A DNA stretch of 64,000 bases from Candidatus Saccharimonadota bacterium (GCA_016280905.1 JAEEHN010000007.1:28621-92620); one strand, 5' to 3'; positions 41,777-41,920 are shown, numbered from the stretch's first letter. Translations and numbers: made by a program. Notes: generated by a model not told the origin, from the letters alone.

Positions 41777-41834
41777 ACACTACATCTAGTGTTTTAAAAC
41801 GACGAAAACGCCCGCAAAACACCATATCTAGTGG
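41777..41834. promoter_or_regulatory. Tandem NrdR-box-like palindromes
   Basis: ACACTACATCTAGTGT (41777-41792) and ACACCATATCTAGTGG (41819-41834), 42 bp apart; match the acaCwAtATaTwGtgt consensus. Confidence 0.6.
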
Positions 41835-41891
41835 TTGTCACTTTACCGATTTGCGTGCAGCAATTACAAACCAGCTGAAACTCTTCCTTTC

Positions 41892-41920
41892 ATTATAGCA
41901 CACTTTACCTAAAAAGTCCA
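41892..41920 (-). promoter_or_regulatory. sigma70 promoter upstream of rpsL
   Basis: TGGACT-17 nt-TATAAT with extended TG. Confidence 0.7.

Follow-up and report, generated by a model that had tools for sequence, protein, structure and literature searches.

What is a pair of NrdR-type boxes doing in the leader of a ribosomal protein operon? NrdR is regarded as a repressor specific to ribonucleotide reductase (RNR) genes, and Saccharibacteria are ultra-small, host-dependent bacteria with very few transcription factors and no de novo nucleotide synthesis. It is in the DNA of one of these bacteria that a first reading, made from the sequence alone (the sequence-only reading), picked out two NrdR-like palindromes ahead of rpsL-rpsG. 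We have followed up this observation in the whole stretch of DNA concerned, 64,000 nucleotides long (the window), and in the rpsL loci of 80 relatives, 941 kb in all with the window. On a modest balance of probability, the pair is a genuine long-spacer NrdR-type operator in the rpsL-rpsG leader, where an NrdR tetramer carrying dATP and ATP would act as a roadblock to polymerase arriving from the promoter P1.

The rpsL-rpsG locus

The window belongs to a Nanosyncoccus-like member of the ruminant Saccharibacteria (TM7). Its S7 protein is 95% identical to the homologue of Candidatus Nanosyncoccus alces, all 80 of its nearest loci in the genome collection are from Saccharibacteria, many of them ruminant gut MAGs, and the public sequencing runs that contain the window sequence are bovine and other gut metagenomes. 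Past rpsG, the gene order continues with gap, rpiB, rpe, a pfkB-family kinase gene and a LOG-family gene (Pfam Gp_dh, LacAB_rpiB, Ribul_P_3_epim and PfkB); a promoter-like site lies between rpsG and gap, and no terminator is predicted there. The str operon is split in this genome, with fusA (3437-5536) and tuf (1395-2579) some 36 kb away from the rpsL-rpsG cluster (36987-41730).

The 203-bp spacer that separates tig from rpsL contains a strong promoter, the two boxes, an AT-rich stretch and the Shine-Dalgarno sequence (Table 1). The sequence-only reading had set the boxes inside a leader of about 155 nt after a TGGACT-17-TATAAT promoter; the promoter scan agrees, and the promoter (P1) is kept in relatives. 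In relatives, its -10 element always stands 7-8 nt ahead of an invariant AAGAGTTTC. This fixed distance would place the inferred start of rpsL transcription near 41885 and give a leader of the length first proposed; a look through RNA-seq runs turned up none that contains the locus. A second promoter between box 2, the one proximal to the ribosome-binding site, and the Shine-Dalgarno sequence is a minor possibility: -10-like hexamers occur there within the AT-rich motif, with no conserved -35 or TG.

Table 1. Coordinates of the features of the tig-rpsL-rpsG region in the window, and of the mini-NrdD regions found on metagenome contigs.
Feature	Position	Strand	Sequence, evidence or remark
tig (trigger factor)	41934-43211	minus	
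P1 -35 hexamer	41915..41920	minus	TGGACT; promoter scan; T(G/A)GACT equidistant in relatives
P1 extended -10	41892..41900	minus	TGcTATAAT; TATAAT at 41897-41892, 17-nt spacer to -35, TG upstream
5' leader RNA element	41845..41885	minus	AAGAGTTTC, then stem-loop with ATTGCTG in the loop; outside the boxes
NrdR-type box, P1-proximal	41819..41834		ACACCATATCTAGTGG on + strand; CCACTAGATATGGTGT in rpsL sense; ~+52..+67
Linker	41793..41818		26 bp; length 25-26 bp in all species, sequence unconserved
NrdR-type box, RBS-proximal (box 2)	41777..41792		ACACTACATCTAGTGT on + strand; ACACTAGATGTAGTGT in rpsL sense; ~+94..+109
AT-rich near-palindrome	41751..41766		TATATATAATATATAG; 10 nt from RBS-proximal box; alignment with tgt-type modules
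Shine-Dalgarno sequence of rpsL	41740..41745	minus	AAGGAG; direct sequence reading
rpsL	41317-41730	minus	Pfam PF00164 / PF00177 across rpsL-rpsG; downstream of box pair
rpsG	40838-41314	minus	Pfam PF00164 / PF00177 across rpsL-rpsG; downstream of box pair
mini-NrdD region	L086:3415-3912		
mini-NrdD region	L207:9889-10438		
mini-NrdD region	L208:9916-10447		
mini-NrdD regions	L120, L178		

Sequence and spacing of the boxes

The two 16-bp palindromes are found exactly where the sequence-only reading had located them, their starts 42 bp, or four helical turns, apart. Mutagenesis of NrdR boxes has identified C4, A6, A8, T9, T11 and G13 as the conserved positions that are critical for binding, and has shown that the linker matters by its length and not by its sequence (PMC13584703). 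Four NrdR proteins bound pairs whose spacer measured 14-17 or 24-27 bp, and were about 100-fold worse at binding pairs spaced otherwise (PMC12051234). Both window boxes carry six of six critical bases, and the 26-bp linker falls within the long-spacer class of 24-27 bp, which bears out the NrdR-like identity first claimed for them. Together with the lack of conservation in the linker, the pair thus has the box bases, the linker length and the unconstrained linker sequence of an NrdR operator. The RBS-proximal box matches ACACWANATNTWGTGT with 0 mismatches; when up to 2 mismatches are allowed, ACACWANATNTWGTGT occurs 3 times in the window, where 0.9 would be expected, and the boxes themselves account for two of the three.

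The rarity of such pairs was gauged with a rule that asks for the six critical positions in both boxes and for a linker of 14-18 or 24-28 bp. A single pair satisfies it in the 64-kb window. In the 941 kb of Saccharibacteria sequence made up of the window and the 80 relatives' rpsL loci there are seven, where block shuffles give about 0.6, and all seven lie in rpsL leaders; outside the rpsL leader, 877 kb of the relatives' sequence yields zero pairs. A box-like match in another relative (L035) is intragenic and was taken as a chance occurrence.

Where the pair departs from an NrdR operator is in its location. It is not at, nor does it overlap, the promoter or start of an RNR operon, and the boxes begin about 50 nt past the inferred transcription start, away from the promoter. 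We know of no characterised NrdR site that lies so far downstream of a start. This location makes a canonical nrd operator less likely, but leaves the case for NrdR binding as it was.

Conservation in relatives

The box pair occurs in the rpsL leaders of at least eight further species, giving nine leaders with that of the window: those of five relatives, L003 (N. alces), L006, L010, L013 and L020, and those of three metagenome contigs, L117 (near-identical to L006), L145 and L185. When the nine are aligned, the 21 invariant columns all belong to the boxes, and the linker and flanks have none. The boxes vary only at positions 1, 3, 7, 10, 12 and 14, the one exception being A8T in L013, so that 17 of the 18 boxes retain all six critical positions. 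This pattern is the one expected for a protein-binding site, and suggests that the boxes serve as such.

The conservation upstream of rpsL that was looked for in relatives is therefore found in eight further species, but in most other close relatives (L004, L005, L007-L009, L011, L015 and others) the leader is short and box-less. Unrelated hairpin-forming inserts occupy the same leader position in L014, L016, L022, L027 and L032. In the rpsL-rpsG tree, the species with boxes all fall in one 13-member group, where they are interspersed with box-less ones; a single clade of box-bearing species is not rejected (AU p = 0.125), and their leader hairpins, judged by eye, are more alike than those of the box-less species. 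A single origin of the pair, followed by losses or recombination, is thus plausible. A recent acquisition of the rpsL operator appears to be the best reading.

NrdR and its putative targets in the lineage

Does the lineage have NrdR at all? With E. coli NrdR as query, tblastn gave no match in the window and the 80 relatives' loci, and neither the window nor the relatives' rpsL regions contain nrd genes. An NrdR (SEML1_0176) is annotated in Southlakia epibionticum, a cultured Saccharibacterium, where its gene comes directly after ftsA-ftsZ and is scored as essential; class I and class III RNR genes are present there as well (PMC10633639 supplement). NrdR is present in 77% of bacterial genomes, and its annotation is widespread in Patescibacteria. 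The genome studied here thus very probably encodes it.

In a Kerfeldbacteria-like Patescibacterium (L113:3465-5211), the stretch between ftsZ and nrdR contains an NrdR box pair, and this ftsZ-nrdR adjacency matches the one annotated in Southlakia epibionticum. When the L113 NrdR was used as query, Kerfeldbacteria and other Patescibacteria were recovered and zero Saccharibacteria stood among the best 120 matches. The window has an FtsA/PilM/MreB-like actin-fold gene (60448-61686), which has no ftsZ beside it, faces alaS and comes after a histidine kinase, a response regulator and a pseudouridine synthase gene. It lies outside a dcw cluster, and its homologues in relatives (L211, L212) keep the same neighbours with no ftsZ or nrdR.

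A scan of metagenome contigs for pairs of the flavour of the rpsL boxes returned at least 119 stretches. Among the matches listed, many adjoin nrdA/B, nrdD/G or nrdR; overall, the linkers most often measure 15-17 bp, and a second cluster is found at 24-26 bp. In five contigs (L086, L089, L108, L120 and L178), the pair stands directly ahead of a gene for a protein of 145-150 residues, mini-NrdD, for which the sole Pfam match (L086, L120 and L178) is the C-terminal glycyl-radical end of NrdD (PF13597). Several mini-NrdD homologues are labelled Candidatus Saccharibacteria bacterium by NCBI, and the mini-NrdD pair recurs in two longer contigs, L207 and L208, the first of which encodes an L31 protein 80% identical to that of the window.

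The mini-NrdD promoter is laid out in the same manner in L086, L120, L178, L207 and L208: box 1, a 16-17 bp linker that ends in TTGACT, box 2, and TATAAT 1-2 nt further on. Its boxes, ACGCTAGATATAGCGT and ACGCTATATATAGTGC, have the flavour of the rpsL boxes of L020, L003 and L145. Judged by this architecture, it is a textbook NrdR-repressed promoter, at an RNR-related gene. The motif of the rpsL boxes thus also occurs at RNR genes of the lineage, in related ruminant Saccharibacteria. The gene nrdR itself is absent from the neighbourhoods of mini-NrdD and of the NrdD of L137, a contig that, like L174, could not be placed in the Saccharibacteria.

A palindrome, GTTGTAA(n)AT(n)TTACAA, lies just 5' of box 1 of mini-NrdD. 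In a low-GC contig (L188:923-1489), an NrdR-type zinc ribbon is fused to a protein longer than usual NrdR, and an NrdR box pair stands ahead of the fusion gene.

Pairs at other genes: operator or passenger?

Box pairs also occur at housekeeping and other genes of Saccharibacteria-like contigs. In a Saccharibacterium that is syntenic with the window over 22-28 kb (L191), a pair with a 16-bp linker (11618-11665) lies in the greA 5' UTR, between a TTGACA-17-TATACT promoter and the ribosome-binding site; greA of the window (21844-22290) has no such pair. Others are found upstream of tgt (L162, 2010-2055; L172; L192; L093), of a MazF-like gene (L161) and of a gene with a CdiA C-terminal-like domain (L122), and three boxes lie upstream of a pilin gene (L110:1992-2044). 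In L201 (2649-2693), the pair comes immediately after the stop of a 90-residue ORF, taken by eye for rpmA (ribosomal protein L27); on its other side is the 3' end of tyrS, identified by Pfam. Separately, two metagenome contigs (L107:1800-2082 and L152:2390-2807) contain tandem arrays in which a 15-bp unit, the NrdR-box-like core TCACTAGATGTAGTG, is repeated head to tail.

These copies can be explained in another way. A module composed of the AT-rich motif, some 10 nt and the box pair could be dispersing or duplicating between intergenic sites of ruminant Saccharibacteria; it might bind NrdR, and at rpsL it would be a tolerated passenger. Read antisense, the rpsL module does align with the tgt-type modules, both showing CATATAATATATAGT and, 10-11 nt on, the first box, and the same CATATAATATATAGT motif comes 8 nt after box 2 behind rpmA in L201. 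With respect to the genes beside it, the module is found in either orientation, and in one case (rpmA/tyrS) it lies where two genes converge. The AT-rich motif is therefore less likely to serve in every case as promoter of the gene that follows, and passive copying accounts for this arrangement as well as regulation does. In addition, it is patchy in the genus, and other hairpin inserts use the same leader position.

We nevertheless consider the passenger explanation unlikely. A prolific mobile element is made less likely by the low copy number in the DNA compared (a single pair in the 64 kb of the window, and outside the rpsL leader zero in 877 kb of the relatives) and by the lack of visible terminal inverted repeats and target duplications. 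The three tgt-type copies come after paralogous upstream genes, so that segmental duplication explains them. The AT-rich motif ahead of the Shine-Dalgarno sequence is present in the rpsL leaders of box-less relatives as well, so it may be native to the leader. Finally, the critical NrdR positions are kept in nine species, which points to selection on binding.

Folding of the leader

Could the palindromes act as RNA, that is, as hairpins for mRNA stability, translation or ribosomal protein autoregulation, with no DNA operator involved? Ribosomal protein leaders are often structured. Each box is able to form a hairpin of 5-6 bp, the boxes pair with each other in the minimum-energy fold, and box 2 shows a change from ACAC..GTGT to ACGC..GCGT. 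However, the folding energy of the leader is ordinary (z = -1.3). Ten of the 12 pairs of the intra-box hairpins are without any covariation, and the sole variable one, between positions 3 and 14, fails to pair in 6 of 18 cases. The intra-box covariation measures are reached in 25-60 of 500 shuffles, and the two boxes do not pair with each other any better than shuffled ones. Lacking excess folding, covariation or pairing above shuffles, the RNA explanation is thus left without positive support. Moreover, the same boxes are found at mini-NrdD in promoter DNA that is not transcribed, and in both orientations, and the leader matches no Rfam family, whether at the gathering threshold or at E <= 10. 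We therefore give little probability to a role of the boxes as RNA.

The conserved RNA element of this leader is another hairpin, located further 5', and it is there, and not in the boxes, that conserved structure with covariation is found. GAGTTTC is present in 77 of the 80 Saccharibacteria rpsL leaders, and all 33 Nanosyncoccaceae-like leaders fold, as single sequences, into a 5' hairpin whose stem sequences differ. The stem, of about 10 bp, co-varies between species and carries a conserved ATTGCTGTA loop; distant members have a larger element with GTGTGTACA and TGCTG. RNAalifold returned no consensus for the 5' hairpin, its 3' arm being misaligned. This hairpin is possibly a ribosomal protein leader RNA, a candidate for S12/S7 autoregulation.

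Another regulator, a remnant or chance

The boxes could also belong to another dimeric regulator of Saccharibacteria, whose site happens to resemble that of NrdR. Sites at many non-RNR genes, in unusual positions and orientations, would fit such a protein, as would the fact that nrdR was not found within the window. The resemblance, though, spans the six NrdR-critical bases, the palindromic flanks and both NrdR spacing classes, down to the two peaks of linker length among the matches listed in the contig scan. The same boxes are also present on an RNR-related promoter, in a phylum in which NrdR exists. A different regulator is for us very improbable.

Least credible of all are a chance match, of which about 0.04 pairs are expected per window, and the alternative raised by the sequence-only reading, an nrd promoter left behind by rearrangement: the str operon has indeed been rearranged, with gap-rpiB-rpe after rpsL-rpsG and fusA and tuf far off, but nine species keep the pair with its critical bases intact (A8T of L013 apart), no nrd gene adjoins it in any of them, and its 26-bp linker, with no -35 inside and no -10 abutting box 2, is unlike the nrd-type promoter of the group.

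Proposed mechanism and significance

The reading that we prefer is that of a long-spacer NrdR operator, acting probably as a roadblock inside the leader. NrdR carrying dATP and ATP would form a tetramer on both boxes, which, at four turns from each other, face the same side of the helix, and the bound tetramer would stop polymerase coming from P1, about 50-110 nt upstream. It may also cover the weak AT-rich start region just past box 2. Synthesis of S12 and S7 would go down as long as the tetramer is bound. With ATP alone, NrdR would be off the DNA and the leader would be transcribed through; NrdR with ATP alone is known to form oligomers that do not bind DNA (PMC9110341; PMC12051234). The effect might reach gap-rpiB-rpe-pfkB, because no terminator is predicted between rpsG and gap. 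NrdR binding at rpsL, the effect on rpsL-rpsG expression, its direction and its size are what we infer from the DNA.

In this organism, as in the relatives that have the boxes, the proposed operator suggests that the supply of ribosomal proteins may be tied to nucleotide status, in tiny bacteria that depend on a host. If true, the dNTP/ATP pool would be linked directly to ribosome synthesis through the leader of the S12/S7 operon, and NrdR would also act from a roadblock position well beyond the transcription start. The similar pairs that related genomes have at greA, tgt and rpmA agree with such a link. The rpsL site would then take its place in a set of NrdR-type pairs of ruminant Saccharibacteria, made up of the mini-NrdD operator and of copies at housekeeping genes.

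A broader version of this proposal can be envisioned, in which NrdR has become a more general regulator in ruminant Saccharibacteria. Operator cassettes, each a box pair and often the AT-rich motif as well, would have spread by copying to the leaders, promoters and 3' ends of genes for translation and housekeeping, and the dATP/ATP state would gate both translation supply and ribonucleotide reduction; the targets may include rpsL-rpsG, greA, tgt, rpmA/tyrS and the pilin gene. We consider this extension doubtful. The wider pattern, with NrdR-type pairs at several housekeeping genes of these bacteria, is a more interesting lead than rpsL alone. Should the rpsL pair turn out to be a mere passenger, it would remain evidence that cassettes of NrdR boxes are spreading inside the genomes of this group. 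The idea lends itself to direct tests, since heterologous boxes are bound by NrdR proteins in vitro and nrdR is essential in a Saccharibacterium that is genetically tractable.

Comparison with known systems

A full-text search of the literature found nothing that links NrdR with Saccharibacteria or Patescibacteria, and nothing that links NrdR boxes with ribosomal protein genes. The long-spacer operators of nrdHEF and nrdDG in Streptococcus pneumoniae (PMC12051234) consist, like the rpsL pair, of two partly palindromic 16-bp boxes with six conserved bases, separated by 25-26 bp and thus four helical turns from start to start. Unlike them, the pair described here faces rpsL-rpsG and not an RNR operon, and lies at about +52 to +109, with no overlap with the -35, the -10 or the start.

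The E. coli nrdAB site, as revised (box 1 and a box 15 bp downstream; PMC13584703), provides a likeness in position. One box covers the -10 and the start, and the functional site comes after it (PMC13584703), hence downstream of the core promoter, as at rpsL, so that repression would not be by simple occlusion of the -35. The nrdAB site nevertheless has a 15-bp linker, sits beside the start, is experimentally bound and belongs to an RNR operon, whereas the rpsL pair is predicted and has a linker of 26 bp. In the same bacterial group as the rpsL pair, the mini-NrdD promoter of ruminant Saccharibacteria has boxes of the ACGCTAGATATAGCGT type; unlike rpsL, its 16-17 bp linker includes TTGACT, its box 2 abuts TATAAT and the pair overlaps the promoter.

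Repression by roadblock inside leaders or genes is familiar from CodY and CcpA of B. subtilis and from PurR of E. coli. In these systems as in the one that we propose, an operator placed tens of bases past the start would halt the elongating polymerase; NrdR itself is not known to act in this way. Members of the NrdR regulon other than RNR genes were reportedly described through comparative genomics by Rodionov and Gelfand in 2005. A predicted member of this kind is topA in Pseudomonas (PMC4409342). Targets of the topA type have NrdR boxes at non-RNR genes, as here, but they are replication or topology genes and their sites are at promoters. Given that the rpsL pair has the defining sequence and spacing of NrdR sites, and that non-RNR targets such as topA have been proposed before, the rpsL site would add a member to the regulon of a known system and would not amount to a system of a new kind.
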